DNA of 64,000 nucleotides from a virus (IMGVR_UViG_3300030330_005745:18949-82948), one strand, 5' to 3'. Counted from the stretch's first letter, positions 6,930 through 41,502 are shown. Notes: generated from the sequence alone by a model not told the origin. Numbers and translations: made by a program.

Positions 6930-7572
6930 TGCTAACGAGGCGTCGTGTTCGTATCGAAAATTCTTGTATGACTTTGACTCCGTCTGGTAGTTGCTGTCCG
7001 TTCGCATGGGCGTCGCGTATTGCATCGAGATTCGGGAGGATTTCTGTAGTTGTTTTGGGTTCCGTTCTTTCTTCAAGAACTTCTCCTGACATTGAACGTA
7101 CCACGGTGTGCTTAGTGACGCACACTTCTTGCTGGATGCAGAAGGAATCTTGTTCAGAAGGTTCCCATAACTGCGGATCCGTTTTGATTTCAACTGCTAG
7201 CTCCTTGCGTTTAGATACAGTGAACTGATAGTTACGCCCATTGATCTTGTTGGTATCAAGGGGCAAAGAACGGCGCAAATACTTGACCAGTTCTTTTAGC
7301 TGCCGCACCTGAGATTCGTGGTGCTTTTGTGCCTCCTGTAGTTTTACTTTCTCTTTTTTAGCGCGTTCCGCACTGTCTTCGTGATGGGCGAGCGCGTAGT
7401 AGATACGATCCACCTTTTCAGACCGTAGCTTGGAACAGGCTTCCAACTCTGCCCGCGCCAAGTCTTGGGACTCAGGAGTGAGAAGAGGAAAAGAGCGTTC
7501 CAGGGCACCATAGTGCTGGTAAAGCTGCAGGACGTTGAGCTTTTCTAGTTTAGTTTGAGTAATTTGTTCCAC
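6853..7572 (-). CDS. Siphovirus Gp157-like protein
   Basis: EKVDRIYYAL..E......KE...LQE....ESQVRQLKELV coiled coil followed by KINGRNYQFTV; C-terminal NLDAIRDA..GQQLPDGV. Confidence 0.65.
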   Translation of the reverse strand: MEQITQTKLEKLNVLQLYQHYGALERSFPLLTPESQDLARAELEACSKLRSEKVDRIYYALAHHEDSAERAKKEKVKLQEAQKHHESQVRQLKELVKYLRRSLPLDTNKINGRNYQFTVSKRKELAVEIKTDPQLWEPSEQDSFCIQQEVCVTKHTVVRSMSGEVLEERTEPKTTTEILPNLDAIRDAHANGQQLPDGVKVIQEFSIRTRRLVSNELEVEAPEYLGQPVPEVGGTDGSV

Positions 7573-10038: not shown

Positions 10039-10065
10039 GGGCAGTTTTACGTCTTGCCCAGGACG
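10039..10065 (-). ncRNA. 27-nt leader pseudoknot, copy 2
   Basis: CGTC-CT-GGGCA-A-GACG-TAAAAC-TGCCC; 12 nt before an ATG. Confidence 0.75.
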
Positions 10066-11070: not shown

Positions 11071-11097
11071 TGGCAGTTTTACGTCTTACCTAGGACG
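11071..11097 (-). ncRNA. 27-nt leader pseudoknot, copy 3
   Basis: CGTC-CT-AGGTA-A-GACG-TAAAAC-TGCCA; 19 nt before the ssb ATG. Confidence 0.75.
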
Positions 11098-13192: not shown

Positions 13193-13942
13193 CTACTTGC
13201 TGTATCCAACAAAGCCTCCTTCTTTTTTACGTTTCGATAGTGCTTTGGAGGCTTCGGTGTTAGCACGTTGGCTGCCATGGACCAGCAATGCAAACGGTTT
13301 GTCACCCAAGCAGTGGCTGTCGTCATGGTCAATTTCTAGACCAAGGTCAGCTGCTTCTTGTTCTGTATAGACCACCTGTGAGGTGCGAATAAAAACGTCA
13401 GGATTTTTATTTATAATTGCATCGAGGTTACCGCCCTTCGATGCTGTCAAATAAAAATTGCTAGGAATTTGGTCTTTGAGATTGAGCCACATGTTGAGTG
13501 ACTTGGTGTAGGCATAGAAGGTTTGCTTGGGCCGCTGCTTTGCAACGAGCATCCATGCCCGCATGTATTCTTCTGTCCAGAAGTCACCAGACTCATGGAC
13601 ACGGATTAGTTTCTTAGGTTTGGTAACCGTAAGAGAGACATCGATCAGATCACGGAGCAGCATGGCTTGGTTGCCATTGCTGTACATGGTCTTACGGATT
13701 AGATCCCAGTTGTGCCAGCGTGCTTCTCTGACGTTGGGCCGCACTTCACTCATTGCAGCAAAGCAACGGAAGTCTTTTGCGTCGGTGCCGTTGTTGTTGG
13801 GAATGTCAGTGATCTTGCCTGTCACGCGGTCTGCATAGGTACGGCAGACACCAGCGTGTGGACAGGAATAGCCTGCTGGCAGTGAGAAGATTAGTCTGTT
13901 GCGGAGCTTACCGTTGCCGGTAGAGAACTTGAGGGTTTGCAT
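13193..13942 (-). CDS. Gp88-like protein (radical-SAM-like fold)
   Basis: FSLPAGYSCPHAGVC...CFA, RVHESGDF and FYAYTKS motifs. Confidence 0.7.
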   Translation of the reverse strand: MQTLKFSTGNGKLRNRLIFSLPAGYSCPHAGVCRTYADRVTGKITDIPNNNGTDAKDFRCFAAMSEVRPNVREARWHNWDLIRKTMYSNGNQAMLLRDLIDVSLTVTKPKKLIRVHESGDFWTEEYMRAWMLVAKQRPKQTFYAYTKSLNMWLNLKDQIPSNFYLTASKGGNLDAIINKNPDVFIRTSQVVYTEQEAADLGLEIDHDDSHCLGDKPFALLVHGSQRANTEASKALSKRKKEGGFVGYSK

Positions 13943-13972
13943 TGAGATAGTTTGATAAGTTGTGCTTATGTA

Positions 13973-14010
13973 TGGGACTTACACAGCGTCTGCACCCGCG
14001 CTGATGCCCA
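13973..14010 (-). ncRNA. GGCAU/GUAAGUCC stem-loop, copy A
   Basis: TGGG-CATC-AGCG-loop-CGCT-GTGTAAGT-CCCA; lies between a stop codon and the Gp88-like gene. Confidence 0.55.
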
Positions 14011-14014
14011 TCAA

Positions 14015-14476
14015 TCAATCCATGTACTTACTTTCAATCCTTTCTACATAATGCATCGTTGCTTCTGCAATAAACAATGAAATATTTCCTTGATAATGTT
14101 CTTCATTTAAAAACGAAGCAGCTTCTTTAATTCTTTTCTGTTCTTCTTCAGTGAATGCAACACCTACGGCACCAGGTACCGTCTTGGGAGTGTATTCGTT
14201 TTTGACATAAGCAGGATTATCTTCCATCCATCGTTCGATGTCTGTGCGTTTGAAATAAAGGTTACGTCCACTCTTCATCAAAGGTTTTGGAAAGAGTCCG
14301 GACTTTATCTTTCGGTGGATTGTGTACCGACTGACGTCAAGCTCATCCATTACTTCTTGCATGCTCCAGCGGTCCTTACATTCTTTTAAAGTTTTGACTG
14401 GACCAGTGGAATAGGTGTTGGAGTTTGCCCATTCCTTTTCATTAGCCAGACGTCTTTTTGCTGCTTGGGGTGTCAT
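14015..14476 (-). CDS. AlpA/excisionase-like HTH DNA-binding protein
   Basis: WSMQEVMDELDVSRYTIHRKIKSGLFPKP...LYFKRTDIERWM; start moved to MTPQ. Confidence 0.75.
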   Translation of the reverse strand: MTPQAAKRRLANEKEWANSNTYSTGPVKTLKECKDRWSMQEVMDELDVSRYTIHRKIKSGLFPKPLMKSGRNLYFKRTDIERWMEDNPAYVKNEYTPKTVPGAVGVAFTEEEQKRIKEAASFLNEEHYQGNISLFIAEATMHYVERIESKYMD

Positions 14477-14523
14477 TGCAGTAGCGGTTGTTACAGGTGT
14501 GTAAAGGAGAGGTAAGATAAAGG

Positions 14524-14580
14524 AACGTTCACCTCTATCTTGGAGGCGCAACCAACTGATCCACGGAACGGGGGACAGTC
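14524..14580 (+). promoter_or_regulatory. glutamine-II (Downstream-peptide) riboswitch
   Basis: CGTTC-A-CCTC-loop-GAGG-CGCA...GAACG-GGG; P1 is 14526-30/14566-70 and P2 is 14532-35/14543-46; directly upstream of a DUF4278 ORF. Confidence 0.8.
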
Positions 14581-14597
14581 TTATGCGGAGAACCAAA

Positions 14598-14744
14598 ATG
14601 AAACTCGTCTATCGCGGAGTTCCATACGAGCGCAAGGAAGCTTTTACCAGCTACCTGTGTACTCAAAACCTCAAAGTCCAACGGGCTGAAGCGGAGAAAG
14701 AGCACGATCGTCGCAATAATAGCAAGAAAGAAATGATCGTTTGA
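14598..14744 (+). CDS. DUF4278-family peptide, 48 aa
   Basis: Manual ORF MKLVYRGVPYERKEAF...; carries the LxYRGVxY signature. Confidence 0.8.
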   Translation: MKLVYRGVPYERKEAFTSYLCTQNLKVQRAEAEKEHDRRNNSKKEMIV

Positions 14745-14764
14745 CGGTTGTTACACTGTTAGAT

Positions 14765-14790
14765 AGGCTGCCTCCGGGTGGCCTTTTTTT
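14765..14790 (+). terminator. terminator-like hairpin abutting the next ATG
   Basis: AGGCTGCC-TCCG-GGTGGCCT-TTTTTT-ATG. Confidence 0.65.
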
Positions 14791-14943
14791 ATGGACAAAG
14801 AAGAACTGAAAGAAAAGATCATTGAATTGATTGAACAAGACATTGAAGATGGTGAGGTGTTGCCTCACTATGGTTTGATTGCGGATTGGAAGATTCGGTA
14901 CATGGATCTAGCTAAGCTGATCTGGCAGTACCTCCACGTTTGA
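14791..14943 (+). CDS. hypothetical protein, 50 aa
   Basis: Manual ORF MDKEELKEKIIELIEQDIEDG... Confidence 0.5.
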   Translation: MDKEELKEKIIELIEQDIEDGEVLPHYGLIADWKIRYMDLAKLIWQYLHV

Positions 14944-14945
14944 AC

Positions 14946-15197
14946 ATGCTCACGTCATTTATATCTTTAGTGTTGGCATCCGTAATGTGGGTACAGGTGC
15001 CGCAATGGGAGAATGACTGGTCCAAATGTGCAGTTGATGTACCTGATGTGGGTTGTCATTGGTACATCGTTAATCCTGACAATACCTTTGGTAAGGGATT
15101 TTCCTGGGAGAATGCCCCATGGTTCAGCGCCGAGGGTCTCCTTGATGTCTCAAAGTTGGAGAACACCATGTTGACCCTCCAAGGCAAAAAAGACTAA
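14946..15197 (+). CDS. secreted picocyanobacterial-type hypothetical protein
   Basis: Signal-like N-terminus, then QVPQWENDWSKCAVDVPDVGCHWYIVNPDNTFG. Confidence 0.65.
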   Translation: MLTSFISLVLASVMWVQVPQWENDWSKCAVDVPDVGCHWYIVNPDNTFGKGFSWENAPWFSAEGLLDVSKLENTMLTLQGKKD

Positions 15198-15374
15198 CTA
15201 TTCCACATGCTTCCATGTCCTCCGATGGACGATAGCACTGATGGCGTTTTGGCTCATACCAGTTTCTTTTGCAAGTGAATAAATAGTTCGTCCCTCTGCT
15301 CTTTTCTTACGAATGTCTATAACATTTTTTTCAGTAAGAATTGAGCGTCCATTCTGTTCTCCTACTGTTGTCAT
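15198..15374 (-). CDS. free-standing HTH of the type found at the C-terminus of HNH endonucleases, 58 aa
   Basis: Manual ORF MTTVGEQNGRSILTEKNVIDIR...LAKETGMSQNAISAIVHRRTWKHV. Confidence 0.7.
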   Translation of the reverse strand: MTTVGEQNGRSILTEKNVIDIRKKRAEGRTIYSLAKETGMSQNAISAIVHRRTWKHVE

Positions 15375-16024
15375 TTCTTGAATGCAACCTCTGCAATGGT
15401 GGGGAGCTTTTCAGTAAAGATAGTCTTGCAGCCTTCAGCGATATCCTTATGTTCTTTCTGTGTGCCGTTGCCTGTACGTAATTGGATGTAGTGAATCCAA
15501 CTGCGGAGAGTCCCGCACATGTATAAACGAGTAGGTGTTGCCAATGGAAGAATTGCCCTGGCACATTCTTTAGCTACACCGTCGCTAATCATTTGGCTAT
15601 AAAGATCCTCAGCCATACTGAAGACGTTTGCAATCTTGTCTTCATAGCAAGCACGTTGCCAGTCTGACAAGTTGTCAACGCTGTTCTGCCTGTTCTTGAG
15701 ATCTTGTGTTCTTAGTTCAGGCATTTCTGCACCACCAAGTTCTTGGGTGCTGGCGTAGCGTTGTGAAAATTCCTGGAATGTGAAGGACCTATGCCTCAGC
15801 AACTGAGGTGAAATTGCTCTGGTTGTGTTGATCTCAATGCACATTGATGCCATTTCAAATGGTGACCAATGCTCGTGATCAATGAGATAACGAATCAAAC
15901 GTGGAGCTGTCAAGTTGTTGTCTTGATTGGAAGGGTTGCTAACCCTTGCCATCATCGTGATCAGTTGCTCTGCCAGGGGTGTGACCCAGACAAGCTTGGT
16001 GAGCGGGTGCAGATTTTGATTCAT
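15371..16024 (-). CDS. thyX: flavin-dependent thymidylate synthase
   Basis: HEHWSPFE and RHRSFTFQEFSQRY signature, KECARAILP, QKEH. Confidence 0.95.
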   Translation of the reverse strand: MNQNLHPLTKLVWVTPLAEQLITMMARVSNPSNQDNNLTAPRLIRYLIDHEHWSPFEMASMCIEINTTRAISPQLLRHRSFTFQEFSQRYASTQELGGAEMPELRTQDLKNRQNSVDNLSDWQRACYEDKIANVFSMAEDLYSQMISDGVAKECARAILPLATPTRLYMCGTLRSWIHYIQLRTGNGTQKEHKDIAEGCKTIFTEKLPTIAEVAFKK

Positions 16025-16359
16025 TAGGCAGCACGATTGTAGTCGTCATCAAGACGTTCAATGTCGGCCTCAGACAGGTGAGAGCCCCGTTGAACCTCGA
16101 TGATGCCAAGTCCCTCTGGGCCTGCTTCTGCACGATGTACGGCATTCTCAGGCACAAAGAGAGTGGTCCCTGGAGCAGCTGGAGTAACAGTGTTACCGCA
16201 GGTGAGTTTACCGGATCCTTGAACGATTACCCAATTCTCAGAGCGATGCCAATGGCGTTGCAGACTGATGCGTTGGTTCGGATGAATCCAAATCTTTTTA
16301 ACTAAAAAACCTTCGCCTGTTTTTATGGTTTCAAAGTATCCCCAAGGACGTTTTTCCAT
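16024..16359 (-). CDS. cupin, mannose-6-phosphate isomerase type II C-terminal-like
   Basis: RPWGYF, RISLQRHWHRSENWVIVQG, IIEVQRG...DIERLDD. Confidence 0.85.
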   Translation of the reverse strand: MEKRPWGYFETIKTGEGFLVKKIWIHPNQRISLQRHWHRSENWVIVQGSGKLTCGNTVTPAAPGTTLFVPENAVHRAEAGPEGLGIIEVQRGSHLSEADIERLDDDYNRAA

Positions 16360-16664
16360 TACAGCTTTACATCGCTGTAATAATTATCCATGGTGTTACG
16401 GTAATCATCAACAACCTTTTCAATGTTTTCAGCAGCACAAAGGCGCATCTGATCTACTTCAACAGGTTGTTGGAGATGATCCCATTTGACTTGAATGAAC
16501 TTCCGACGGCGCGTACCAGTCCTGGTCTTTTGTGTTTTAAGAATCAGATCAGTGACGGTACCGAAGCGTTGACCCATGTTGATCGAAGTCATCTTGGGTT
16601 TGTCTGCAACGCGTTCACCCACTTGGAAACGAAAAGTGGGGTCAAATTTTTCTTGACTAGGCAT
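16359..16664 (-). CDS. hypothetical protein
   Basis: 101-aa ORF, coupled to its neighbours. Confidence 0.6.
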   Translation of the reverse strand: MPSQEKFDPTFRFQVGERVADKPKMTSINMGQRFGTVTDLILKTQKTRTGTRRRKFIQVKWDHLQQPVEVDQMRLCAAENIEKVVDDYRNTMDNYYSDVKL

Positions 16665-16977
16665 TGGTTTGAGGAATGGTGTCGAGGTGGAGGTTTTCTA
16701 AAGCGAGCAGCGTTGCTGTTGTGCCAAGGATACGAAAAGCATCCTCAATTAATTCATAGTTGTTTGACTCGTTGTTGTAATAATCGTTGAGGATTTTTTC
16801 AGCCTGCTCAAACCCCCCTGGGTCACCAGTGAGTCTGGTCAGGATGACACTAGACATGTTGTCCGTAAACATCTCTGAGAGTTTTTTACGGACGACAGGC
16901 CACGTCCATGATGGAACAAGATCAATGACTTGATGAACAAGTTGAAGATCTGTTAACGAGTGTTCGTGTGAAATCAT
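16657..16977 (-). CDS. hypothetical protein
   Basis: Start moved to MISHEH, immediately after a hairpin/U-tract. Confidence 0.6.
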   Translation of the reverse strand: MISHEHSLTDLQLVHQVIDLVPSWTWPVVRKKLSEMFTDNMSSVILTRLTGDPGGFEQAEKILNDYYNNESNNYELIEDAFRILGTTATLLALENLHLDTIPQTNA

Positions 16978-16978
16978 G

Positions 16979-17002
16979 AAAAAACCCCGGGTGTACCGGG
17001 GT
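16979..17002 (-). terminator. terminator-like hairpin abutting the next ATG
   Basis: CCCCGG-TACAC-CCGGGG-TTTTTT-C-ATG. Confidence 0.6.
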
Positions 17003-17023
17003 CGATGCTCTCCCCGTGCCAGG

Positions 17024-17383
17024 TTAGGCAGGGGTTGCTTCAGTTTCAACTACTTCTTCAAGCATTCCTGACTCTTGAAGTTTGTCGAGCATGGCAACCA
17101 TGATGTTGGCATTCTCTTGGGTCTTTTCCATGAAGTGTTTGGCTTTTTCTGCAGTGATGCTGTGAACGCAGCCATTGTCTTCGATGAAGACCCATGAGCC
17201 ATCTGGTTGTGGCTTGCCCTTCTCCAGTGCCCAACGTTCGCAATTGCGGATATATTGGATCTGGAGGTTGTGTGAGTCAGTCAGACCACGGTCGTCGATC
17301 CAGGTGAGGCCGACGTTGTACCGAGTGTCTTCGTCTTTGAAGCAATGAGGCTGAGGAAGAAACTGTTTGAAAGCTCCTAGCAT
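17024..17383 (-). CDS. hypothetical protein
   Basis: Start moved to MLGAFK, downstream of the tRNA. Confidence 0.6.
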   Translation of the reverse strand: MLGAFKQFLPQPHCFKDEDTRYNVGLTWIDDRGLTDSHNLQIQYIRNCERWALEKGKPQPDGSWVFIEDNGCVHSITAEKAKHFMEKTQENANIMVAMLDKLQESGMLEEVVETEATPA

Positions 17384-17403
17384 TGTCTTGTGTAGGTTTG
17401 GTT

Positions 17404-17492
17404 TGGTGAGAGTGGTGGGACTTGAACCCACATAGCCATTACTGACTGACAGATTTTAAGTCTGTTGCGTCTACCAATTCCGCCACACTCTC
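17404..17492 (-). tRNA. trnL: tRNA-Leu(UAA), CCA encoded
   Basis: GAGAGTG acceptor stem, TGGTAGACGC D-arm, anticodon loop CTTAAAA, long variable arm, GGTTCAAGTCC T-arm, 3' ACCA. Confidence 0.95.
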
Positions 17493-17496
17493 AGGT

Positions 17497-17533
17497 CTAG
17501 GACTTACACCACCCTTGGCTTGTGGATGCCTAG
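17497..17533 (-). ncRNA. GGCAU/GUAAGUCC stem-loop, copy B
   Basis: CTAGG-CATC-CAC-loop-GTG-GTGTAAGT-CCTAG; ends 4 nt before the tRNA 5' end. Confidence 0.55.
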
Positions 17534-17537
17534 CTGA

Positions 17538-19328
17538 TCAGGACTTTAGTTGTTCCTCACGGACGTGCAACGCTTCCTTGAATGCATGTTCAACATTGGA
17601 ACGTTCAACATCATCAAGACGTTTGTTACCTACATCCGCAATTTGAACAACGCTCATCACACCGTTGTCAACCGTTAGTTGAATGGTGTAACGAGGTTTG
17701 TTCTCGATCATGCACAAGATGATGAGATGTTTCATCTTCTTGATTCCTTCTGCATATCCATGTCCACCACCAACGCAGTTACGTACGGCACGGCCCCACG
17801 CAGCAAGTTGGTGTGTGTCATGCGGTTGGAAGAACGAGAAGTAACCATCGCCAGGTAGGGTGCCTGACTGTGTGTGGTTGATTACATCGTTGAAAGGGAT
17901 ACGCATGGGGTTTGGAAACAATTTCTGTGGTAGATCAATGTTGGGGTTGGTGATCTTCCAGGTCTCTGCCATGAGATGGTCATGCCATTCCTGGAGACGC
18001 CAACGCTTTGGCTTGATGTTGTCGAGCCGACCGGATGCAATGCATTGGGTCAGCATCTGATAGGTATCACGCCAAAGATGGAAGTAAATATGTATGTTGC
18101 CTGTCTTACTATCTGTGCTGATGTATTCTCTTTCTTCTAGTTCACGTTGGTAATACGTGTGCATCATGTTGAGGTATGACTCAACAGGAAGATTGTCACG
18201 CATCCATTGTTTACCTGTATCACTGTGATAACCAGGAAATTCACAGCAACGCAACCAGTTGTACCTGGAATGAAGCAGGTTTAGATCCATGTCACGATAA
18301 ATAGCTTTAACGTGATGCATTGAATCAATAAACTGATTAAGAATTGCATACGGTCTGACAAGAAGCCTGACATCATATTCATCTTTTTCAGTTTCTTCTT
18401 CATGGATGGCAAAGGTATCTTTCATGGCTTGTGCCACCATTGATCTAAACCATTTAGCGGACCACACATCTTCTAACCAAGGACCACTCCAACGTTTACG
18501 TAATAGATCAATAATGGTATCAACATCGTGAACATAATCATCGCCTCCAGACAACCACTTAGGCCTTGAATAAGACCCCGACATAATTTTTGTGAAGGTA
18601 CAATTTGCTGGGTTCAAACGTTTGAAATAATGAGCATTATTATTGCCGATAAATGTAGGGATACCTTTAAGTAATTCTGCTTGCCATTTATTAATAGCCT
18701 TTGAAATTTCATGAGTAGCACCCCAGGTGTTGATGCGATGAGTTTCGGTTACTTTCCTCCAATAACTACCGGTGTAACCATCAACAAACTCATCTTTGGT
18801 AAAGAATAAAGTTTTGCGATACCAGAAGGTACGGCCATCTTTGATGCGTGGGAGCATGTCATCTTGTGTGCCATGCACATGATCAAACATTCCTTTATTG
18901 ACATAACTGCCTTTAGCAATAAAACGTTCATCGCATTGCTTACGTGCTGCAGCTGTATCTTTGAAGGTAAAGCTAAGGCCATAGACATAGCCATCATCTT
19001 TACGTCGTGGTATCCAGGCAGCAACCCACAGTTGTTTGTGGTAGTAAATAACTGCCACAGGTTTAGGTTCTTCACCGAAGACAGGCTTGGTAATTAGGTG
19101 TACCTTTCCTTGTTTGACAGACTTTGAATTGATGTTGTCAACAACTTCGTTCCAAGTTCTGTCGTTGACGATGTCAGATGGGATAAGGTTCGAGGGCCTG
19201 CCGTTGGGATGTGTATTCTTCTTTTTGGCTTTGCGATCTTCTGCAGCCATGACAGCTGCAAGTTTCTTGCGGGTTTGGTCATAGCCTGCAACTTCAAGTG
19301 CAAGCTGATCGGGGAGATTGAAATGCAT
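17538..19328 (-). CDS. PcfJ-like domain protein
   Basis: C-terminal QPHDTHQLAAWGRAVRNCVG..Y...IILCM...YTIQL and LQEWHD. Confidence 0.7.
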   Translation of the reverse strand: MHFNLPDQLALEVAGYDQTRKKLAAVMAAEDRKAKKKNTHPNGRPSNLIPSDIVNDRTWNEVVDNINSKSVKQGKVHLITKPVFGEEPKPVAVIYYHKQLWVAAWIPRRKDDGYVYGLSFTFKDTAAARKQCDERFIAKGSYVNKGMFDHVHGTQDDMLPRIKDGRTFWYRKTLFFTKDEFVDGYTGSYWRKVTETHRINTWGATHEISKAINKWQAELLKGIPTFIGNNNAHYFKRLNPANCTFTKIMSGSYSRPKWLSGGDDYVHDVDTIIDLLRKRWSGPWLEDVWSAKWFRSMVAQAMKDTFAIHEEETEKDEYDVRLLVRPYAILNQFIDSMHHVKAIYRDMDLNLLHSRYNWLRCCEFPGYHSDTGKQWMRDNLPVESYLNMMHTYYQRELEEREYISTDSKTGNIHIYFHLWRDTYQMLTQCIASGRLDNIKPKRWRLQEWHDHLMAETWKITNPNIDLPQKLFPNPMRIPFNDVINHTQSGTLPGDGYFSFFQPHDTHQLAAWGRAVRNCVGGGHGYAEGIKKMKHLIILCMIENKPRYTIQLTVDNGVMSVVQIADVGNKRLDDVERSNVEHAFKEALHVREEQLKS

Positions 19329-19351
19329 GATGTTGTGTAGGTATGAGAAAG

Positions 19352-19378
19352 GGGCAGTTTAGTGTCATGCCCAGGACA
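19352..19378 (-). ncRNA. 27-nt leader pseudoknot, copy 4
   Basis: TGTC-CT-GGGCA-T-GACA-CTAAAC-TGCCC; 23 nt before an ATG. Confidence 0.75.
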
Positions 19379-19384
19379 TTTGAG

Positions 19385-19642
19385 TCAGTCTAGATACCGA
19401 TCGGATGTGTCAATGACTTTCCAGTTAAGGTCAAGATCATCAACGTAACGGAGGAAAGCAGCTCCATCGTGGGGGAATGGTACCTCTGGATCAACTGCAA
19501 AGCTTGCTTCGCATAGTGCCGGGCCGTATTCAGCAGGTTCAAGCATAGTTTGTGCATGGACAAGAACCATGTCTTCAACCGTTGCTTCCACATAGACACG
19601 TTGATCGTCAAAGGTAGTTTCATGGATTGAGATAACAGCCAT
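19385..19642 (-). CDS. hypothetical protein
   Basis: 85-aa ORF with EPAEYGPALC. Confidence 0.6.
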   Translation of the reverse strand: MAVISIHETTFDDQRVYVEATVEDMVLVHAQTMLEPAEYGPALCEASFAVDPEVPFPHDGAAFLRYVDDLDLNWKVIDTSDRYLD

Positions 19643-19905
19643 TAGTTGATCTGTTTGCGAACGGTCAGATGTTTGACCATGGCATAACCCATGGAATGAA
19701 TCGATGAATCCTTCGATGCAAAGATCCCATTGGGACCATACTCCTCAAAGTATTCTTCGAAGGCATCAATGATGCGTTGCCTGTTGCTCATGTCTGCAGT
19801 TCTGTATGCAGCCATAAGTTTTTGAGCAAAGCCGCCACCGTAGGTTTCGATGCGTTGGACAGTTGCTTCGATCGTTGGATCGGTAGGTGTGAGCTTGTTG
19901 AGCAT
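19642..19905 (-). CDS. conserved phage hypothetical protein
   Basis: YGGGFAQKLMAAYRTADMSNRQRIIDAFEEYFEEY. Confidence 0.65.
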   Translation of the reverse strand: MLNKLTPTDPTIEATVQRIETYGGGFAQKLMAAYRTADMSNRQRIIDAFEEYFEEYGPNGIFASKDSSIHSMGYAMVKHLTVRKQIN

Positions 19906-19913
19906 GAGTTGAT

Positions 19914-20111
19914 TTAGAACAGTTTGATGTTGCGCTTGGACAGGCCAGTGCCCGGGATTCCAACGGAACCACGGACACCAGACCCACGAACATTCATTGT
20001 GAACAAGAATGGTCCAAGCTTGATTGATTTGCTGAATGACTTCACACCACGTTCAGTGATGTTGAAGCCACCGACAGTTTTGTCGAAGTTGAATGCAGAT
20101 CTTTTAGTCAT
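19914..20111 (-). CDS. DUF4236-like protein
   Basis: FSKSIKLGPF..NV..SGV..SVGIPGTGLS. Confidence 0.65.
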   Translation of the reverse strand: MTKRSAFNFDKTVGGFNITERGVKSFSKSIKLGPFLFTMNVRGSGVRGSVGIPGTGLSKRNIKLF

Positions 20112-20445
20112 TTAGTGGAATACTTTTGCGTTTAAATGGTTCAGTCCAGGGAGTACGATGATCCATGTAAATAATGTCATCGGTATGTGAGGTGACGTCA
20201 CCTTTGTAAGCTTTGAAGAAATAACGATCAGCTTCTTTGTACTTTGGTACAAAACAAGACTCACTGGCAAATTCCCAGTCAGCAAGCTGACAACAAAGCT
20301 CTTCATAAACTTCAAAAGGATCTTGTCTTTGATCTTGGAACTTTTGATTCCAAGCGTCAAAATCCCCCCTGGTCATTACAGCTTCTTCAATAATTGGAAC
20401 AAGTCTGTAATGAACAAGAGTTACAAGTTCTTGTTTGTCTGTCAT
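20104..20445 (-). CDS. hypothetical protein
   Basis: 113-aa ORF coupled to its neighbours. Confidence 0.55.
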   Translation of the reverse strand: MTDKQELVTLVHYRLVPIIEEAVMTRGDFDAWNQKFQDQRQDPFEVYEELCCQLADWEFASESCFVPKYKEADRYFFKAYKGDVTSHTDDIIYMDHRTPWTEPFKRKSIPLND

Positions 20446-20663
20446 TGTTTGTCGGGATTGAGAGCGTCAGGCAGGATGTACCTTGGATCATCCTTTTCCA
20501 TGTTCGACATAACGAACACTTCTCCTGTATTTGGATCAAGGAATCCACCGATGAATCCTGCGCCGCAAGAGTCAGCTTTTTCCCTGAGTTGTGCAGTGAG
20601 CTGCATCATGCGCAGCTTGGTGGACTGTGGAGTGTTGTCCGGTACAGCAGGTTGGTTTGGCAT
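20442..20663 (-). CDS. hypothetical protein
   Basis: MPNQPAV...GFIGGFLDPNTGEVFVMSNM; start uncertain (20732 is an alternative). Confidence 0.55.
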   Translation of the reverse strand: MPNQPAVPDNTPQSTKLRMMQLTAQLREKADSCGAGFIGGFLDPNTGEVFVMSNMEKDDPRYILPDALNPDKQ

Positions 20664-20789
20664 AGTGAAATCAGGTGTAGGAATGGTGAATGAATGAGCA
20701 GTGTAGGCGGTGGTTTCACCGATGATTAACATAGAACTTTAGCTTTTCTTAAGGATGCCGAAGACAAAGGCCCCGACATCCCAAGGTAT

Positions 20790-21032
20790 CTACTTGTAAT
20801 GCAGTTGTCTAGTCCTGTAATCCAAGACGCTTTCCGTCCATGTGGAATCAGGATGATCAAGGACAGCACGGCGGGCTTTTTCGACGGCCTCTTCCGTGCC
20901 ACCACAGTTCAACATCAATGCAACAGCAGTGTCTAGGTCTGCGAGCAGATGTGAGACAGCATTTGGAAGTCCACGGGGTATAGTTCTACCTTTCTGTTCG
21001 TAATACTCAGTGATGTAGTCAGGATAATCCAT
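20790..21032 (-). CDS. hypothetical protein
   Basis: 80-aa ORF. Confidence 0.55.
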   Translation of the reverse strand: MDYPDYITEYYEQKGRTIPRGLPNAVSHLLADLDTAVALMLNCGGTEEAVEKARRAVLDHPDSTWTESVLDYRTRQLHYK

Positions 21033-21057
21033 GAGATGAAGAAGAAAGATTGAAGGG

Positions 21058-21249
21058 TTATCTATAAGAACTAAAAGATATCTTGGTACTCTCCCTGCGG
21101 GGGTCCGGGGGGATTGATTCTTCTACTTCGATCAATCCCATGTTCTTACCTTCTGTATCAATCTGTGATGCCAGATGTCTTGCAAATGCACCACGTCTTC
21201 TTGGATTGAAGACTGTCTTCTTGGGCTTGTTTGTCCTGGGACGTGCCAT
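21058..21249 (-). CDS. basic hypothetical protein
   Basis: MARPRTNKPKK..., coupled to the upstream stop. Confidence 0.5.
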   Translation of the reverse strand: MARPRTNKPKKTVFNPRRRGAFARHLASQIDTEGKNMGLIEVEESIPPDPRRESTKISFSSYR

Positions 21250-21605
21250 CAAATTAAAGCGAGGATGGTCAGCCAACTATCGGGGTGGTCAGGTTCGACT
21301 TCATCGTCTGCCGGTGTTAAGCAGGTTGAATCGAGTGCCCACTCCTCGATTTCTCCGTTGGAAGGGACAGGGTACCATCCTTCGAGCGAGTCCTCGATGT
21401 TTTCTGGCTTCCAGTAACACTGGAGTTTGCCACTTGGGTCTTTGAAGACACAGCCCGTGATCGGGTGCGTGTTTTCGTCTTCTTGGTTGTAGAGGAGCGG
21501 GTCGTAGTTGACTTCTGCGGGGAACTGCTCTTGGCACTCCTCTTCTGTGAAGGGGACGTAACCGGTGAGTTCTTCTGCGATGCGTTTGGTTTCTGGATGA
21601 AGCAT
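21249..21605 (-). CDS. acidic hypothetical protein
   Basis: 118 aa; GWYPVPSNGEIEEWALDS.C.TP..DEVEPDHPDSWL. Confidence 0.65.
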   Translation of the reverse strand: MLHPETKRIAEELTGYVPFTEEECQEQFPAEVNYDPLLYNQEDENTHPITGCVFKDPSGKLQCYWKPENIEDSLEGWYPVPSNGEIEEWALDSTCLTPADDEVEPDHPDSWLTILALI

Positions 21606-21694
21606 GAGATCAACTCCGTGATGATGATTGAGATGATGACAATGATGTGCAGGATGACATCATCGTGTGTGTCATTCTTGGTGGTAGTCGGCAT
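21317..21694 (-). CDS. single-TM protein with a long basic Ser/Thr/Lys tail, overlapping the next gene
   Basis: MPTTTK..VILHIIVIISIIITELISCF followed by a low-complexity tail; 289-nt overlap. Confidence 0.45.
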   Translation of the reverse strand: MPTTTKNDTHDDVILHIIVIISIIITELISCFIQKPNASQKNSPVTSPSQKRSAKSSSPQKSTTTRSSTTKKTKTRTRSRAVSSKTQVANSSVTGSQKTSRTRSKDGTLSLPTEKSRSGHSIQPA

Positions 21695-21848
21695 CGCCTG
21701 CCACCTCCTCTGACATGAGTTCTTGCATGAGCTGTTCTTGCTCGTTGGCAATGTCGTTGAGAACGAATTGCTGGTCTTGGGTGTACTCAGTTTTGACAGC
21801 ATCGTTGAGACGTTGCTGGTCGAGTAGCCAGGTCTTGATAAGAGACAT
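21672..21848 (-). CDS. hypothetical protein, 58 aa
   Basis: Manual ORF MSLIKTWLLDQQRLND...; preceded by pseudoknot copy 5. Confidence 0.6.
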   Translation of the reverse strand: MSLIKTWLLDQQRLNDAVKTEYTQDQQFVLNDIANEQEQLMQELMSEEVAGDADYHQE

Positions 21849-21871
21849 GATGTGAAATGGTATAGGTCAGT

Positions 21872-21898
21872 GAGTAGTTTAAGGACGTGCTCAGGTCC
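21872..21898 (-). ncRNA. 27-nt leader pseudoknot, copy 5
   Basis: GGAC-CT-GAGCA-C-GTCC-TTAAAC-TACTC; compensatory changes in P1. Confidence 0.7.
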
Positions 21899-21903
21899 AT
21901 TGG

Positions 21904-22077
21904 TCAGTCACTGTAGTGTTGTTTGAGTTTGTGATAATTGGCATTCACCCACTCATCCAAGCCATACATGACGATTTGAATTGGATCTTGACCGGATAAT
22001 TCTCCGAGTTCAATCAATCGATCCATTGTTCTTTGTGAATAAAGAATCTGCTGGAGAAGTTCGTTTGATTCAGTCAT
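21904..22077 (-). CDS. hypothetical protein
   Basis: Start moved to MTESNELL. Confidence 0.5.
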   Translation of the reverse strand: MTESNELLQQILYSQRTMDRLIELGELSGQDPIQIVMYGLDEWVNANYHKLKQHYSD

Positions 22078-22288
22078 CGGAGTAGTCCGCGCAGATGATC
22101 TGGCACAGGACTTTACCCGGGAAGTTGTCGTGGAATTTGGCATAAGCTTGACCGATAGTAGAACCACTGACCTTGTAGAAGTGTCGCGATTGCATCGGTT
22201 GCTCACCGACATCAGCTTGGTCGACGTACATGATTTCCCAATCGCGTACGTCTCCTTCCGGGCCAGGATTTAGTGATTGATACGGCAT
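22070..22288 (-). CDS. hypothetical protein
   Basis: Start moved to MPYQSLNP. Confidence 0.5.
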   Translation of the reverse strand: MPYQSLNPGPEGDVRDWEIMYVDQADVGEQPMQSRHFYKVSGSTIGQAYAKFHDNFPGKVLCQIICADYSDD

Positions 22289-22312
22289 AGATTGTGTGCA
22301 ACCACACACATC

Positions 22313-22570
22313 CTAGTCAGCCGTATGTCTTGTGATTGGAAGGTCATACTTCTCAATCAACATTGACTCAAATTGAGCCAATACTTTTACCTTGGAACCT
22401 TTGAAGCCGTACTCTTTCTTCACAGTTGAATACACACTGGGAAGGTTACGAGACAGCTTCATGCCTTTGGTTTCAAGCAGTAAAGCTTTGTGGAGAGTGA
22501 GAAGTCTGAACTTGGAGGTGTCATCGCCAGTAATAACGAAGCCACCGTCGTCATAGGTTTGAATAGCCAT
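22313..22570 (-). CDS. conserved phage hypothetical protein
   Basis: FRLLTLHKALLLETKGMKLSR..SVY..VKKEYGFKGSK.KVL.Q. Confidence 0.65.
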   Translation of the reverse strand: MAIQTYDDGGFVITGDDTSKFRLLTLHKALLLETKGMKLSRNLPSVYSTVKKEYGFKGSKVKVLAQFESMLIEKYDLPITRHTAD

Positions 22571-22571
22571 G

Positions 22572-22593
22572 AAAAAACCCGGCGTGTGCCGGG
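22572..22593 (-). terminator. terminator-like hairpin abutting the next ATG
   Basis: CCCGGC-ACAC-GCCGGG-TTTTTT-C-ATG. Confidence 0.6.
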
Positions 22594-22618
22594 TGGTAGT
22601 GTGTGAGTTAGTTGAAAG

Positions 22619-23062
22619 TTACACCGTTACATGACGCCATGCACGGTTCGCATGGATGTTTGCAATGGTGTCTTTAGATACGCTGTAGCCTTGAGCAATG
22701 TCCATGTAAGCTTTGTGCTTACTGCCGTACTCTTTCATCATCCCTTGGTTGTTCAAGATCTCTTTGATCTCACGAACGTCAGACTCAGAGAGCTTGGGGT
22801 TACCACGACGGCCAGTCTTGGAGTCGTTGGTGATTTTGGACACCAGCATCTTGACTGGTGCAGAGGGATGAATTTGTTTGGTGGTGTCTGGTGCCTCGAT
22901 CAGATCTGCGATTGGTGCTGCGAGAGCAAACTTCAGATCCATGGTGCGTGCTCCCTTCTTAATGGAGAAGGTAACGCTGCTGTCATTGCTGATAACGCAG
23001 ACGTGATCAGGGGTGGAGACGTTGATTTCGGACAAGTTGTCCATGGGATTTGTCGAGTACAT
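22619..23062 (-). CDS. protein with a C-terminal HNH-associated-type HTH
   Basis: GNPKLSESDVREIK...IAQGYSVSKDTIANIHANRAWRHV. Confidence 0.65.
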   Translation of the reverse strand: MYSTNPMDNLSEINVSTPDHVCVISNDSSVTFSIKKGARTMDLKFALAAPIADLIEAPDTTKQIHPSAPVKMLVSKITNDSKTGRRGNPKLSESDVREIKEILNNQGMMKEYGSKHKAYMDIAQGYSVSKDTIANIHANRAWRHVTV

Positions 23063-23147
23063 GCAAAAGATAGTGAGTCTTGGGAGTAAAGCAACCCCTG
23101 CTTACGAGCTGTTGTAATAGTGATGGGCGCAAGCAGGGGGAGGGGGT

Positions 23148-23342
23148 CTACTGTGCGAGATAGCTGATATGGATGCAGTATTTGGCATCACCCAGGAAAG
23201 ACTTGTAGGTCACAAGTCTGTGGTAGTCAGCCATTCGTTTGCATGTTGCCGTTTCATGGGCGTTCATGGCTTTCTGCCCCACAATGACGAGGAGAAAACC
23301 AAGACCAGCACCAAGAAGGACGGCGGTTATGGGCTTAGTCAT
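23148..23342 (-). CDS. small membrane-anchored protein
   Basis: N-terminal hydrophobic helix, later CxxM and AKYC. Confidence 0.55.
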   Translation of the reverse strand: MTKPITAVLLGAGLGFLLVIVGQKAMNAHETATCKRMADYHRLVTYKSFLGDAKYCIHISYLAQ

Positions 23343-23371
23343 GAGCTAGTGACTGTTAAGAAAAGATTAAG

Positions 23372-23416
23372 CAGGATGGTGAGTCCTGCAGAGAAGGCCC
23401 GAAGGCCCTCAGTGCA
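23372..23416. repeat. 45-bp direct repeat, copy 1 (cUUCGg hairpin on the minus strand)
   Basis: 44/45 identical to 23736..23780. Confidence 0.9.
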
Positions 23417-23420
23417 GAAG

Positions 23421-23714
23421 TCAATCAACTGACCGTAGAACTTCAATGATCCAACGACAAGTCTTTGCTTTGTCGAGATCAATTGCTTCATCTATGAATT
23501 GATAGTCATACCATTTATCATCGACACAGAAATCGATGCATCCACTTTTCAGATGAGCTCTTGGAATGTTCTTCCAATTTGATTCTTCATTTACATTGAT
23601 AGAAAAGAATGCAAACAGAACACCACATTTAGAAACTTGTAGTTCAAAATCTTCATCAAAGGCATTGATCCATTCAGTTTGTCTAATAACTTCTTTGAGA
23701 GAGCCACGGGTCAT
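23421..23714 (-). CDS. AT-rich hypothetical protein between the direct repeats
   Basis: Start moved to MTRGSL; 97 aa. Confidence 0.6.
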   Translation of the reverse strand: MTRGSLKEVIRQTEWINAFDEDFELQVSKCGVLFAFFSINVNEESNWKNIPRAHLKSGCIDFCVDDKWYDYQFIDEAIDLDKAKTCRWIIEVLRSVD

Positions 23715-23735
23715 GAGATGCTTTGCAATGTAATA

Positions 23736-23780
23736 CAGGATGTTGAGTCCTGCAGAGAAGGCCCGAAGGCCCTCAGTGCA
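23736..23780. repeat. 45-bp direct repeat, copy 2
   Basis: 44/45 identical to 23372..23416. Confidence 0.9.
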
Positions 23781-23784
23781 AGAG

Positions 23785-24183
23785 TCAGAGACTTGCCGCT
23801 TGTTCAGGCGTAAGCTCTTTGGAGAACGGTTTGTCGGCCTTGGGTTGTGGCTTGGAGCCAAAGATGTACTGCTGCACGGTCATCTGCAGCTCTGGCTTTT
23901 GGAGTGGCTTTAGCTCATCGTCCTTCATGTAGAAGGCACGGATTGCTTTGATGCGACCCATGAGTGTCAGCTCCTGACCGGTCTGCAGGTTGCCGTTGCG
24001 GTATGCAGTGAGCAACCCATTGCTGTTGGTGAAGTGAACACATGCAGTAATCTCATCACTGAGATTGGTGTACACCTTGACAGACAAGAAGTTCTGGTCG
24101 TTGTACTCAACCTCTTCGAGATTGGCAACACGACCGTGTACCGTCAGCTGTTGAGCGTCGGGATACTTGATGGATTCAGTCAT
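23785..24183 (-). CDS. second SSB-like OB-fold protein
   Basis: LTVHGRVAN...FLSVKVYTN...GQELTLMGRI pattern. Confidence 0.55.
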   Translation of the reverse strand: MTESIKYPDAQQLTVHGRVANLEEVEYNDQNFLSVKVYTNLSDEITACVHFTNSNGLLTAYRNGNLQTGQELTLMGRIKAIRAFYMKDDELKPLQKPELQMTVQQYIFGSKPQPKADKPFSKELTPEQAASL

Positions 24184-24272
24184 GGTTTGAACTGAGGTAG
24201 TGTGCTGGAGCCCATCCCAGCTTTGGGCAATAACTGCCGAAGGGTTTGCACCTTCGGACCCGCTTGTACGGA

Positions 24273-24410
24273 TCAGTTGGGTTCAATGAAGCGTGCAATC
24301 TTGCGACGCACGTCATTAGTTTTCCTGATCAATTGTTCCTTTGATCTGTCATGCTGCAGCTTGTGTGCTGCTGCGATCAGACCGGAGGCAATGGTCTTGC
24401 GAATTCCCAT
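24273..24410 (-). CDS. basic hypothetical protein, 45 aa; first gene of the minus-strand arm
   Basis: MGIRKTIASGLIAAAHKL...; internal ATG of track ORF 24273..24572. Confidence 0.5.
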   Translation of the reverse strand: MGIRKTIASGLIAAAHKLQHDRSKEQLIRKTNDVRRKIARFIEPN

Positions 24411-24438
24411 GGTGAATAAAGAATCAGAATGAATGATC

Positions 24439-24469
24439 TTGGACTTACTTGTGATACTCACAATGCCAA
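24439..24469 (-). ncRNA. GGCAU/GUAAGUCC stem-loop, copy C
   Basis: TTGG-CATT-GTGA-GTA-TCAC-AAGTAAGT-CCAA. Confidence 0.5.
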
Positions 24470-24823
24470 GTTGACTTACAGTTCTACGCCGCGCCGGGTA
24501 GGCGAAGGCTCTAAATCCGATCTCATGCGCAATAATTACGATGAAAACGCCAGTATTTATACTCAAATTCAATCATTTCTATCTAATTGTTGTGGAATGG
24601 TGACATAAACACGGCTAATCGAAGGGTTCGCACTGCACATCGAAGGCAGTACATGGTACCCATGCCGTAGTTTCTTTTTTTTCCTTACACATGCGCAATC
24701 GGACAGGCGGTGGGAGAACCGTCAGGTAAATTTGTTCCCTATTCGAGACATATAGGGGTCCAAACTTTTAAGTAAAAATGCGATTTTGTACGTAAACCGG
24801 GGACTTTGCCCAAGAAAACACAC

Positions 24824-24850
24824 AAAAAAACCAGGTATTTCTACCTGGCC
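24824..24850 (-). terminator. intrinsic terminator
   Basis: CCAGGTA-GAAA-TACCTGG-TTTTTTT after gene 24875..25087. Confidence 0.75.
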
Positions 24851-41467: not shown

Positions 41468-41502
41468 TCCTTATAAATAGATAACTCATCTAGGAGAAAT
41501 AA

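Follow-up and report, generated by a model that had tools for sequence, protein, structure and literature searches.

Cyanophage genomes carry, at gene junctions, a short hairpin motif with an invariant asymmetric internal loop that acts at the RNA level and belongs to the leader of the downstream gene, and this motif has no counterpart in Rfam or in the literature searched. In this study, we found three copies of it, all on the minus strand, in the 82,948-bp genome of a freshwater S-EIV1-like cyanophage; coordinates refer to the window, the whole 64,000-nt stretch of DNA that was analysed. The full stems lie at 13973..14010 (copy 1, model match 13967-14016), 17497..17533 (copy 2, 17492-17538) and 24438..24470 (copy 3, 24433-24475). 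These places and the strand agree with the original prediction, with the full stem of copy 3 read as 24470-24438. The pattern GGCAT-N5-35-GTAAGTCC gave three matches against 0.05 expected, three being reached in 0 of 100 shuffles, and the whole 82,948-bp genome holds none beyond these three copies. Model R1, whose training set included these same three copies, scored them at 38.1, 29.7 and 29.7 bits, and the next best match at 14.5. The hexamer GUAAGU shows no clear excess outside the motif (15 on the minus strand against 12.6 expected).

The fold begins with a lower stem closed by GG/CC, which is followed by the conserved asymmetric loop (5' C-A against 3' G-U-A-A-G-U) and, above it, by an apical hairpin that varies. 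Where this upper stem begins, the two facing nucleotides are mostly U.U, but G-C, C-G, U-A or G.U take their place in other copies, U-A being the pair in copy 3. Both the covariation of the outer stems and the variability of the apical stem are as first described. As for the proposed GGCAT internal loop, its conservation held up, but its GG is not unpaired, since GG and CC pair and the 5' side of the loop is C-A. The length of this single hairpin ranges from 28 to 70 nt among homologues. In the smallest copies, 5-8 bp are followed by 1 bp and by another 3 bp, with about 10-13 pairs stacked, and the stem of the upper hairpin varies, as do its loops (for example GCAA, GUAA, UUAC or UUCG), with 3-32 nt between the closing pairs. 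The three copies in this genome are of ordinary predicted stability (z-scores -1.1, 0.1 and -1.1).

A covariance-model search, which had been called for together with the original prediction, found further homologues with covariation (164 copies in 80 related contigs at E<=0.01), and so the claim of a conserved RNA motif stands. Exact matches to the pattern occur in at least 120 viral contigs. The matches, from 1.38 Mb, lie on the gene strand without exception at E<=0.01 (164 of 164), and relaxing the threshold to E<=1 leaves 172 of 173 there. In other lineages, 59 of 61 copies are on the coding strand, with the motif falling on either contig strand. Paired cells amount to 74% (61.6% in shuffles), and covariation is scored at 0.36 versus 0.14, 0 of 500 shuffles attaining the higher value. 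Furthermore, when matches were selected by sequence only, 54 of 60 had three of three flanking pairs, versus 33 with permuted partners. Both stems vary freely among 120 distinct matches in which G9, G10, C11, U67, A68, A69, G70, C72 and C73 are invariant, and the ten loop and closing nucleotides are strictly conserved across phages whose GC content ranges from 0.37 to 0.65.

The carriers include four lineages of cyanophages unrelated to one another, of which some have a single copy, and small siphovirus-like and T4-like contigs are also among them. Relatives of the phage studied here contain up to 7-8 copies per 10 kb, one ahead of many individual genes, and other lineages contain a single copy ahead of the major capsid gene or a tRNA. 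The cultured phage S-EIV1 carries the motif in two strong copies; S-CBWM1 itself has no copy, whereas its metagenomic relatives do. In 596 Gb of cellular genomes there were seven exact matches, which is chance level by estimate, and a sample of 151 genomes from the phylum to which a Melainabacteria MAG belongs, probably Cyanobacteriota, yielded only a seed contig and one weak match. No Rfam family matched the motif, either at gathering scores or with the threshold set at E<=10, and the literature searched contained nothing similar, the string GUAAGUCC giving nothing relevant.

In the phage studied here, copy 1 lies 4 nt past the stop of an HTH_17/AlpA-like gene (14015..14476, minus strand) and 30 nt ahead of the start codon of a GP88-family gene (13193..13942, minus strand; Pfam GP88 match 3.2e-40), as predicted for the copy preceding a Gp88-like gene. 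Copy 2 lies 4 nt past the stop of a 596-aa gene with a weak PcfJ-like match (17538..19328, minus strand) and, also as predicted, 4 nt ahead of a tRNA, which is tRNA-Leu(UAA) (17404..17492, minus strand). Copy 3 lies 27 nt ahead of the ATG at 24410 of a putative 45-codon ORF (24273..24410, minus strand). This ORF had been taken as the first gene of the arm, which it is not, with a 70-aa ORF and a terminator-like hairpin upstream of it. A TATAAAT box is found about 80-90 nt upstream of copy 3, and terminator-like hairpins are found downstream of it at 22594-22577 and 17003-16983. In the two closest relatives, a terminator-like hairpin lies between the motif and the tRNA. The phage genome also encodes a large primase.

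A similar arrangement is typical of the homologues. The copies are intergenic, with an open frame of at least 300 nt spanning 52 of 331 copies as compared to 225 of 331 random positions. The next start is 20-40 nt away in 219 of 327 copies and its spacing is tight (interquartile range 27-38 nt), whereas the spacing to the upstream stop is loose (4-54 nt, typically 4-8 nt), with a stop within 10 nt in 171 of the 331 copies. Where spacers are long, the motif is closer to the downstream start in 63 of 80 cases. In the mosaic region, one and the same downstream gene family can have any of 7-11 different families upstream of it, and the motif tends to move together with the downstream gene. The leaders are G-poor, CA-rich and without a Shine-Dalgarno sequence, except for the S-CBWM1-like group, which has a GGAG-type site in the leader and a spacing of about 50 nt. 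After the stem the U tracts are short: the next 10 nt contain a median of 3 T, and 2-3 U follow about half of the copies. In addition, 42 of 331 copies (~13%), from two unrelated lineages, lie 3-5 nt ahead of a tRNA, among them tRNA-Asn in an unrelated contig, so the role of the motif is not purely translational. Considering its strand specificity, its intergenic position at fixed spacing and the covariation of its homologues, the motif is an RNA-level signal at junctions.

The hairpin shares its leader position with a second module, a pseudoknot whose core GACGUUAAACU is that of coremin. In this genome, coremin-like pseudoknots are found on the minus strand at 19352..19377, 11071..11096 and 10039..10064, that is, 27 nt ahead of the 596-aa gene, 23 nt ahead of the SSB gene and 12 nt ahead of a 335-aa gene, respectively. 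Among orthologues of GP88, 4 phages have the hairpin in the leader and 22 have the pseudoknot; for the 578-aa gene these numbers are 2 and 37, for a 356-aa gene 2 and 16, and for a 59-aa gene 6 and 4. Both modules lie 20-35 nt ahead of the AUG. Thus, the hairpin and the coremin-like pseudoknot are interchangeable in the same leader position. They also have a common frame, CU-[4 nt ending in C]-AU ... GUWAA ... G-[3 nt], by which the hairpin matches the pseudoknot-closing helix.

Coremin (xrRNA_C), an RNA element of plant and other RNA viruses, is reported to stall the 5'-to-3' exoribonuclease Xrn1, and so is its Watson-Crick pseudoknot version, xrRNA_WCC (PMC6546385, PMC10321173). Like coremin, the hairpin is a short structured module, but it is nested, with no pseudoknot and no hp2 requirement. 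In PMC6546385, coremin hp1 is defined as a 5' hairpin of 3 bp with a YGAD loop; this element is absent from the phage hairpin, whose upper stem and loops are variable instead. Of the 10-nt coremin spacer GUUAAACUAC with its essential A15-A17, the hairpin has only (U)GUAAGU, whereas the full GUUAAACUAC spacer is present in the neighbouring phage pseudoknot modules. Nor does the hairpin have the S2 of xrRNA_WCC (hp1 loop-spacer, H-type pseudoknot), both of its helices being nested. A pseudoknot between GUAAGU and a downstream ACUUAC was considered and rejected, for this pairing was available in 29 of 103 non-redundant leaders and in 27-29 of 103 with control hexamers of the same composition.

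Taking these sequence-based results together, we tentatively propose, at somewhat less than even confidence, that the motif is a cis-acting leader module which serves as a physical barrier and insulator for the downstream RNA. Lying in the 5' leader of the following mRNA cistron or tRNA inside polycistronic cyanophage transcripts, the hairpin would be one of a small set of interchangeable leader modules, the coremin-like pseudoknot being another. After an upstream cut or decay, the fold would halt 5'-to-3' degradation or linear scanning by host RNases, and the G-poor leader lacking a Shine-Dalgarno sequence would survive together with its cistron, with a base-paired 5' end. The fold could also prevent the leader from pairing with upstream coding RNA, and the conserved loop (C-A versus GUAAGU, plus U.U) would either give the fold a distinctive tertiary structure or be recognised by a conserved factor. 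Both the barrier or insulator function and the nuclease involved are what we infer. As the phage host is a bacterium, the candidate nuclease would be RNase J or E and not Xrn1; cyanobacteria have both enzymes, and both are essential (PMC8682795, PMC7283877). Coremin and bacterial RNases are connected here by analogy only. A mechanical block as in known xrRNAs is not guaranteed, because the hairpin is nested and not knotted. Moreover, a 5' shield makes little sense for a tRNA trimmed by RNase P, where the hairpin would sit at the 3' end of the upstream mRNA, and recognition by a specific protein fits the strict conservation of ten nucleotides at least as well as an autonomous fold does. A narrower version, which we consider doubtful though possible, is that the hairpin represents a new, unknotted class of nuclease-resistant RNA, derived from the coremin-like pseudoknot or convergent with it, by which several unrelated cyanophage lineages stop host RNase J or E at gene boundaries. 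In this way, the long phage transcripts would be divided into messages and tRNA precursors that are stabilised separately. We know of no xrRNA-type system described so far in DNA phages and bacteria.

Alternatively, the motif may be the site for a specific protein, either an endoribonuclease that cuts at gene boundaries or a global RNA-binding regulator of leader stability or translation, with the invariant loop as the reading surface and the variable apical hairpin as a spacer; we regard this as possible but rather unlikely. Host RNase III cuts T7 sites, Cas6-type enzymes cut repeat hairpins, and T4 RegA is a global RNA-binding regulator of a leader regulon. The invariance of the loop and closing nucleotides next to freely varying stems is what such a site would look like, as are several leader-position copies per genome and the presence of the motif in viral contigs but not in the cellular genomes searched, and the copies abutting tRNAs would suit a processing role. 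However, a protein partner encoded next to the motif was rejected, with no neighbour gene common to the carrier groups (capsid, portal, ThyX, exonuclease and small ORFs were seen). Since four unrelated lineages carry the motif, some of them as a single copy, any partner that the phages encode would need to occur very widely, and one supplied by the host would lack a substrate of this kind in the host itself. A single sequence-specific protein would also account less easily for the swap with a pseudoknot of different shape, but the common frame leaves room for one. The T7 RNase III sites resemble the motif as internal-loop hairpins between cistrons of polycistronic phage mRNAs, both early and late, with several per genome. 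They comprise about two helical turns, or about 20 bp of dsRNA, with an internal loop, and are defined more by shape than by sequence, whereas copies of the motif may comprise no more than about 10-13 stacked pairs, to our knowledge short for RNase III and less than in its classical substrates, and their loop sequence is invariant. The ompA-type 5' stabilisers and REP-type 3' hairpins are likewise intergenic hairpins protecting RNA ends, the REPs often a few nt from stop codons; they have no conserved loop sequence, and REPs are near-identical host repeats, in contrast to a motif absent from the cellular genomes searched beyond chance level. Among named three-dimensional loop motifs compared by eye, none of the kink-turn, loop E, UAA/GAN, 11-nt receptor and S8 site appears to fit.

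A role in translation, as a 30S standby or recruiting site for a leader lacking a Shine-Dalgarno sequence or in the coupling or uncoupling of neighbouring cistrons, is in our judgement unlikely. The tight AUG spacing of 27-38 nt and the G-poor leaders would fit it, as would a stem beginning inside the footprint of the ribosome terminating on the upstream gene, and coremin is reported to block scanning ribosomes and stimulate frameshifting (PMC10520033, PMC10321173); it is not expected from the copies directly ahead of tRNAs in two unrelated lineages, or from the S-CBWM1-like leaders with their own GGAG-type site. Even less probable are signals acting on DNA, such as a hairpin for replication or priming, to which the phage-encoded primase could be related, or a junction repeat promoting cassette shuffling like that of PeSL. 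The mosaic region, in which the motif tends to move along with the downstream gene, would agree with the latter, but the coding-strand bias holds with genes on either contig strand, the spacing to the start codon or tRNA is fixed, and the stems differ among copies, which makes them weaker recombination substrates. G.U pairs are not clearly favoured over A.C inside the stems (14 versus 11), so this comparison is uninformative between RNA and DNA. PeSL cassettes of T4-type phages consist of an early promoter and a stem-loop, and like the motif they are repeated intergenic modules heading small early genes in a mosaic region. However, a consensus promoter scan revealed no sigma-70-type site adjoining any of the copies, and what is conserved in the motif is an asymmetric loop of RNA-like character. 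Two promoter candidates were also rejected: the conserved block ahead of the copies heading a 61-aa gene family is the C-terminal coding end of the upstream gene with its stop codon, and for a hairpin promoter of a phage RNA polymerase there is no polymerase among the large ORFs, the carriers including siphovirus-like and T4-like contigs.

The original prediction had suggested an RNA-processing or antitermination signal. Its junction RNA signal is borne out and a role in processing or at RNA ends is plausible, whereas the put/nut-like part agrees poorly with the data, in view of the many copies and the lack of a boxA or two-hairpin architecture. Lambda nut consists of boxA and a 15-nt boxB hairpin with a conserved loop, HK022 put of two adjacent stem-loops of about 70 nt acting on RNA polymerase, and nut or put occurs once per early operon, just behind the promoter. 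The motif shares with them that it is a cis-acting RNA hairpin in early phage transcripts, but it is a single hairpin of 28-70 nt with no boxA-like partner or other conserved upstream box and no similarity to either. It occurs in up to 7-8 copies per early region, mostly right behind stops deep in operons, and heads many individual genes, tRNAs and, as single copies, capsid genes. We know of no antitermination role for a coremin-like pseudoknot. The TATAAAT box and the terminator-like hairpins of this genome and its closest relatives, together with the U residues after about half of the copies, would be compatible with processive antitermination or with a weak factor-assisted terminator or attenuator, but the U tracts are short, and the available portions of PMC6546385 and PMC10321173 mention no antitermination role for coremin. 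Control of transcription by the motif is thus very unlikely.

In summary, the motif is an RNA part that can be defined precisely and of which several hundred variants occur in nature, and its presence in the cultured phage S-EIV1 makes it experimentally testable. Picocyanobacteria rank among the major primary producers, yet little is known of post-transcriptional control in their abundant phages. If the proposed leader module does block RNases or insulate the downstream RNA, the idea of nuclease-resistant viral RNA would extend from eukaryotic RNA viruses to DNA phages, the expression of leaders without a Shine-Dalgarno sequence from long early transcripts would be easier to explain, and a compact insulator part for cyanobacterial engineering would become available. 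Being common to unrelated cyanophage lineages and absent from the cellular genomes searched, the motif may also serve as a marker of cyanophage contigs.

Three copies of a hairpin motif had been described on the minus strand of the window, and they were found exactly where they had been placed, at 13973..14010 (copy 1), 17497..17533 (copy 2) and 24438..24470 (copy 3). The sequence pattern of the hairpin matches these three sites versus 0.05 expected, and no further match was found elsewhere in the 82,948-bp genome. A covariance model built from the motif, with a training set that included the three window copies, gave them 38.1, 29.7 and 29.7 bits; its next best match reached 14.5. The IMG/VR record from which the window was taken (82,948 bp; bases 18949-82948) is rated complete by CheckV. 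Its family A DNA polymerase shows 66% identity to the enzyme of Synechococcus phage S-EIV1, a polar freshwater cyanophage, and its gene order is colinear with that of S-EIV1. The early arm, running on the minus strand from ~25087 down to ~2369, contains small early ORFs, tRNA-Leu(UAA), ThyX, an HTH regulator, a GP88-family gene, DNA polymerase, and SSB. It also contains three strong intrinsic-terminator-like hairpins on the minus strand (24829-24850, 22577-22594, and 16983-17003), and a TATAAAT box at ~24556-24562 (minus) lies ~80-90 nt upstream of copy 3. A glutamine-II riboswitch at 14523-14579 (plus strand; Rfam, 47.5 bits), followed by a small ORF (14583-14744) and a terminator-like hairpin (14765-14784), forms a cassette oriented opposite to the surrounding minus-strand arm.

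Alignment of 71 distinct copies from the window and other contigs revealed the anatomy of the hairpin. The lower stem comprises 5-8 pairs and always ends with G-C, G-C. Above it, C-A on the 5' side faces G-U-A-A-G-U on the 3' side, followed by one switchable pair, which is U.U in about three quarters of the copies and otherwise G-C, C-G, U-A, or G.U; the true variability of the loop may exceed that seen, since the training copies of the model had been picked by pattern. The upper hairpin can be of any length, with 3-32 nt between the closing pairs, and in its commonest form carries a tetraloop on two C-G pairs. In the conserved loop, pairing of the invariant C with the second G of GUAAGU is possible, and would leave the U bulged and A opposite GUAA as a 1-by-4 loop; we infer this pairing, since invariant columns cannot covary. 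Extra GUAAGU boxes are present on the minus strand ~15 nt upstream of copy 1 (14026-14031) and ~3 nt upstream of copy 3 (24474-24479), and may be there by chance, given that the hexamer shows no overall enrichment (15 versus 12.6 expected).

The three window copies are unremarkable in predicted stability, and therefore the case for the hairpin rests on covariation rather than on folding energy. Paired cells amount to 74%, as compared to 61.6% in shuffles, and the covariation score is 0.36 versus 0.14, values reached by none of 500 shuffles. When the partners were slid by 1-3 columns, pairing dropped to 27-48%. Because some pairing had been required in choosing the training copies, matches selected by sequence alone were also examined, and all three flanking pairs were present in 54 of 60, versus 33 with permuted partners.

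The hairpin motif is an undescribed RNA family: no Rfam family matches it even at E<=10, and a full-text literature search for its core string returned nothing relevant. Since the 80 contigs examined as relatives were fetched through their GP88 protein, they were not selected for the hairpin. At E<=0.01 the model matched them 164 times, without exception on the gene strand, and at E<=1 the gene strand carried 172 of 173 matches; these counts include related sequences and hence do not represent independent events. Nearly all of these hairpins are located in a 10-kb stretch of small genes that lies upstream of GP88, and a single contig can have as many as 7-8 copies. S-EIV1 has two strong copies, at 40724-40789 and 41434-41480 on its minus strand, and one weak copy. 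The exact pattern was found in at least 120 viral contigs, whereas 596 Gb of bacterial and archaeal genomes gave seven matches, approximately the calculated chance level. One of the seven, a perfect copy scoring 41 bits (L216 / L221, G001:C8:6-43), is on a 2.5-kb contig in a Melainabacteria MAG, and this contig is probably a fragment of phage DNA. In a sample of 151 genomes from the phylum of this MAG, which we infer to be Cyanobacteriota, the covariance model gave no convincing match. By flanking gene content, at least eight groups of carriers can be distinguished, with GC contents from 0.37 to 0.65. Four groups are tied, by a host assignment that rests on similarity to isolates, to cyanophages of unrelated types: S-EIV1-like phages, S-CBWM1-like phages, S-LBS1/S-CBS1-like siphoviruses, and contigs with T4-like cyanomyovirus genes. 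In the S-CBWM1-like phages a single copy separates a 157-aa gene from the major capsid gene, and S-CBWM1 itself has none.

With ORFs called mechanically, the copies are intergenic, as an open frame of at least 300 nt spans 52 of 331 copies versus 225 of 331 random same-strand positions. Of 331 copies, 171 have a stop codon no more than 10 nt upstream, and 219 of 327 are followed by the next start codon after 20-40 nt. The spacing to the start is tight (interquartile range 27-38 nt) whereas that to the stop is loose (4-54 nt), and in 63 of 80 long spacers the hairpin stays close to the gene that follows. These indicate that the hairpin belongs to the downstream leader, in agreement with the finding that one downstream gene family can be preceded by 7-11 different upstream families. 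Furthermore, outside the S-EIV1 group hairpins occur on either contig strand, yet 59 of 61 are on the coding strand, which supports an RNA-level role. Thus, the reading of the motif in the original prediction as an RNA-level signal at gene junctions holds, on the grounds of covariation, coding-strand link, and intergenic position. The leaders after the hairpin are poor in G (~10%), rich in CAA and UCAA, and without a Shine-Dalgarno sequence. In the 70-80-nt spacer upstream of some copies (~1985-2050 of L032, a relative of the window; the relatives L038, L060, and L062, among others; ~41481-41540 of the S-EIV1 record), a further conserved element is found that contains GUAUUGG ... CCAAUAC, often followed by AUGCCAAUAC, and a small hairpin. 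This element may represent a promoter region or an additional leader module.

Not all of the downstream RNAs are messengers. A tRNA lies 3-5 nt beyond the end of 42 copies (32 distinct), and 31 of the distinct ones precede tRNA-Leu(UAA). The remaining one is on L132 (3451-3560), an unrelated 109-kb viral contig with a GC content of 0.39, where a portal gene lies upstream and tRNA-Asn(GUU) 5 nt downstream. In the two closest relatives of the window, L004 (~6970-7010) and L005 (~6965-7005), the motif and tRNA-Leu are separated by an inserted GC-rich terminator-like hairpin (GCCCAGG ... CCUGGGC, then UUUCU) that the window lacks.

A second kind of leader module, a coremin-like H-type pseudoknot, occurs on the minus strand of the window at 10039-10064, 11071-11096, and 19352-19377, 12-27 nt before a 335-aa gene, the SSB gene, and a 596-aa gene, respectively. 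The window versions have the form GUC-CU-[4 nt]-AW-GAC-RYUAAACU-G[3 nt]. In the relatives, 121 distinct versions follow the consensus cGUC-CU-[4 nt]-AU-GAC-GUUAAACU-G[3 nt]; their two variable 4-nt blocks vary in concert, and the AUG is 20-35 nt downstream of the pseudoknot. Another candidate pseudoknot (~24237-24261, minus), in which GGGU would pair with ACCC and CCGAAGG with CCUUCGG, lies ~53 nt before a 132-aa gene at 23785-24183. The coremin core of plant viruses is matched almost exactly by the stretch GUC...GAC-GUUAAACU. Coremin stalls the 5'-to-3' exonuclease Xrn1, as does a variant with Watson-Crick loop-spacer pairing (PMC6546385, PMC10321173); bacteria and phages are not mentioned in these two papers.

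When all ORFs of the 80 contigs were clustered and their leaders classified, using for the pseudoknot a regular expression that misses variants, hairpin and pseudoknot were found before 4 and 22 GP88 orthologues, 2 and 37 copies of a 578-aa gene, 2 and 16 of a 356-aa gene, and 6 and 4 of a 59-aa gene, respectively. Many leaders upstream of GP88 classified as neither carry a further coremin-like variant, GGAC...GUCC-CUAAACUAC. These results show that the modules are interchangeable at one and the same position, the hairpin being replaceable by the coremin-like pseudoknot in the leader. Leaders behind both kinds (L004-L083; window 13943-13972) are G-poor, with repeated CAA/UCAA and no Shine-Dalgarno sequence, as in ACUCAACUCAA ... 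ACC AUG. The two modules also have a common frame: on the 5' side C-U, 4 nt ending in C (NGGC in the hairpin), and A-U; on the 3' side GU(U)AA, a G pairing with that C, and the complement of the rest. They differ in topology, since the middle strand of the pseudoknot (GAC) pairs with GUC further 5', whereas the middle segment of the hairpin folds on itself. Judging from this shared frame and differing topology, the hairpin looks like an unknotted relative of the pseudoknot, by common descent or convergence. It is a kind of structured intercistronic module of phage transcripts whose nearest relative is the coremin-like knot, and is outside the coremin, nut, put, and RNase III-site families.

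Thus, the hairpin is a phage-restricted RNA-level module of the leader of the downstream RNA, and both its structure and its loop sequence are conserved. As to what it does, the original prediction, whose observation is confirmed and greatly extended here and whose interpretation is partly supported, favoured an antitermination or RNA-processing signal of the put/nut type. Antitermination, or termination, is quite unlikely considering the copy number, the position, and the short U tracts. Hardly more probable is a DNA-level element, which the strict coding-strand link and the fixed spacing to starts argue against. A translation element, though somewhat less improbable, is doubtful as well, because hairpins before tRNAs make a purely translational role unlikely. 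The main rival, to which we give an appreciable if minor chance, is that a specific nuclease or regulator recognizes the hairpin; the invariant loop favours this reading, but no common neighbouring gene points to a partner.

We tentatively prefer, by analogy, a role of the hairpin as a barrier and insulator in the leader. RNase J degrades RNA from the 5' end, and RNase E is able to scan from a 5' end. Both are essential enzymes on which cyanobacteria rely (PMC8682795, PMC7283877). A compact fold 27-38 nt before the AUG would stop RNase J/E-type decay arriving from upstream, so that the unstructured leader and its cistron would remain intact behind it, and the hairpin would also keep the leader from pairing with upstream coding RNA. 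The tRNA cases weaken a strict 5'-shield reading of this proposal. There, an RNase P cut would leave the hairpin at the 3' end of the upstream mRNA, and thus the hairpin may protect RNA ends in both directions.
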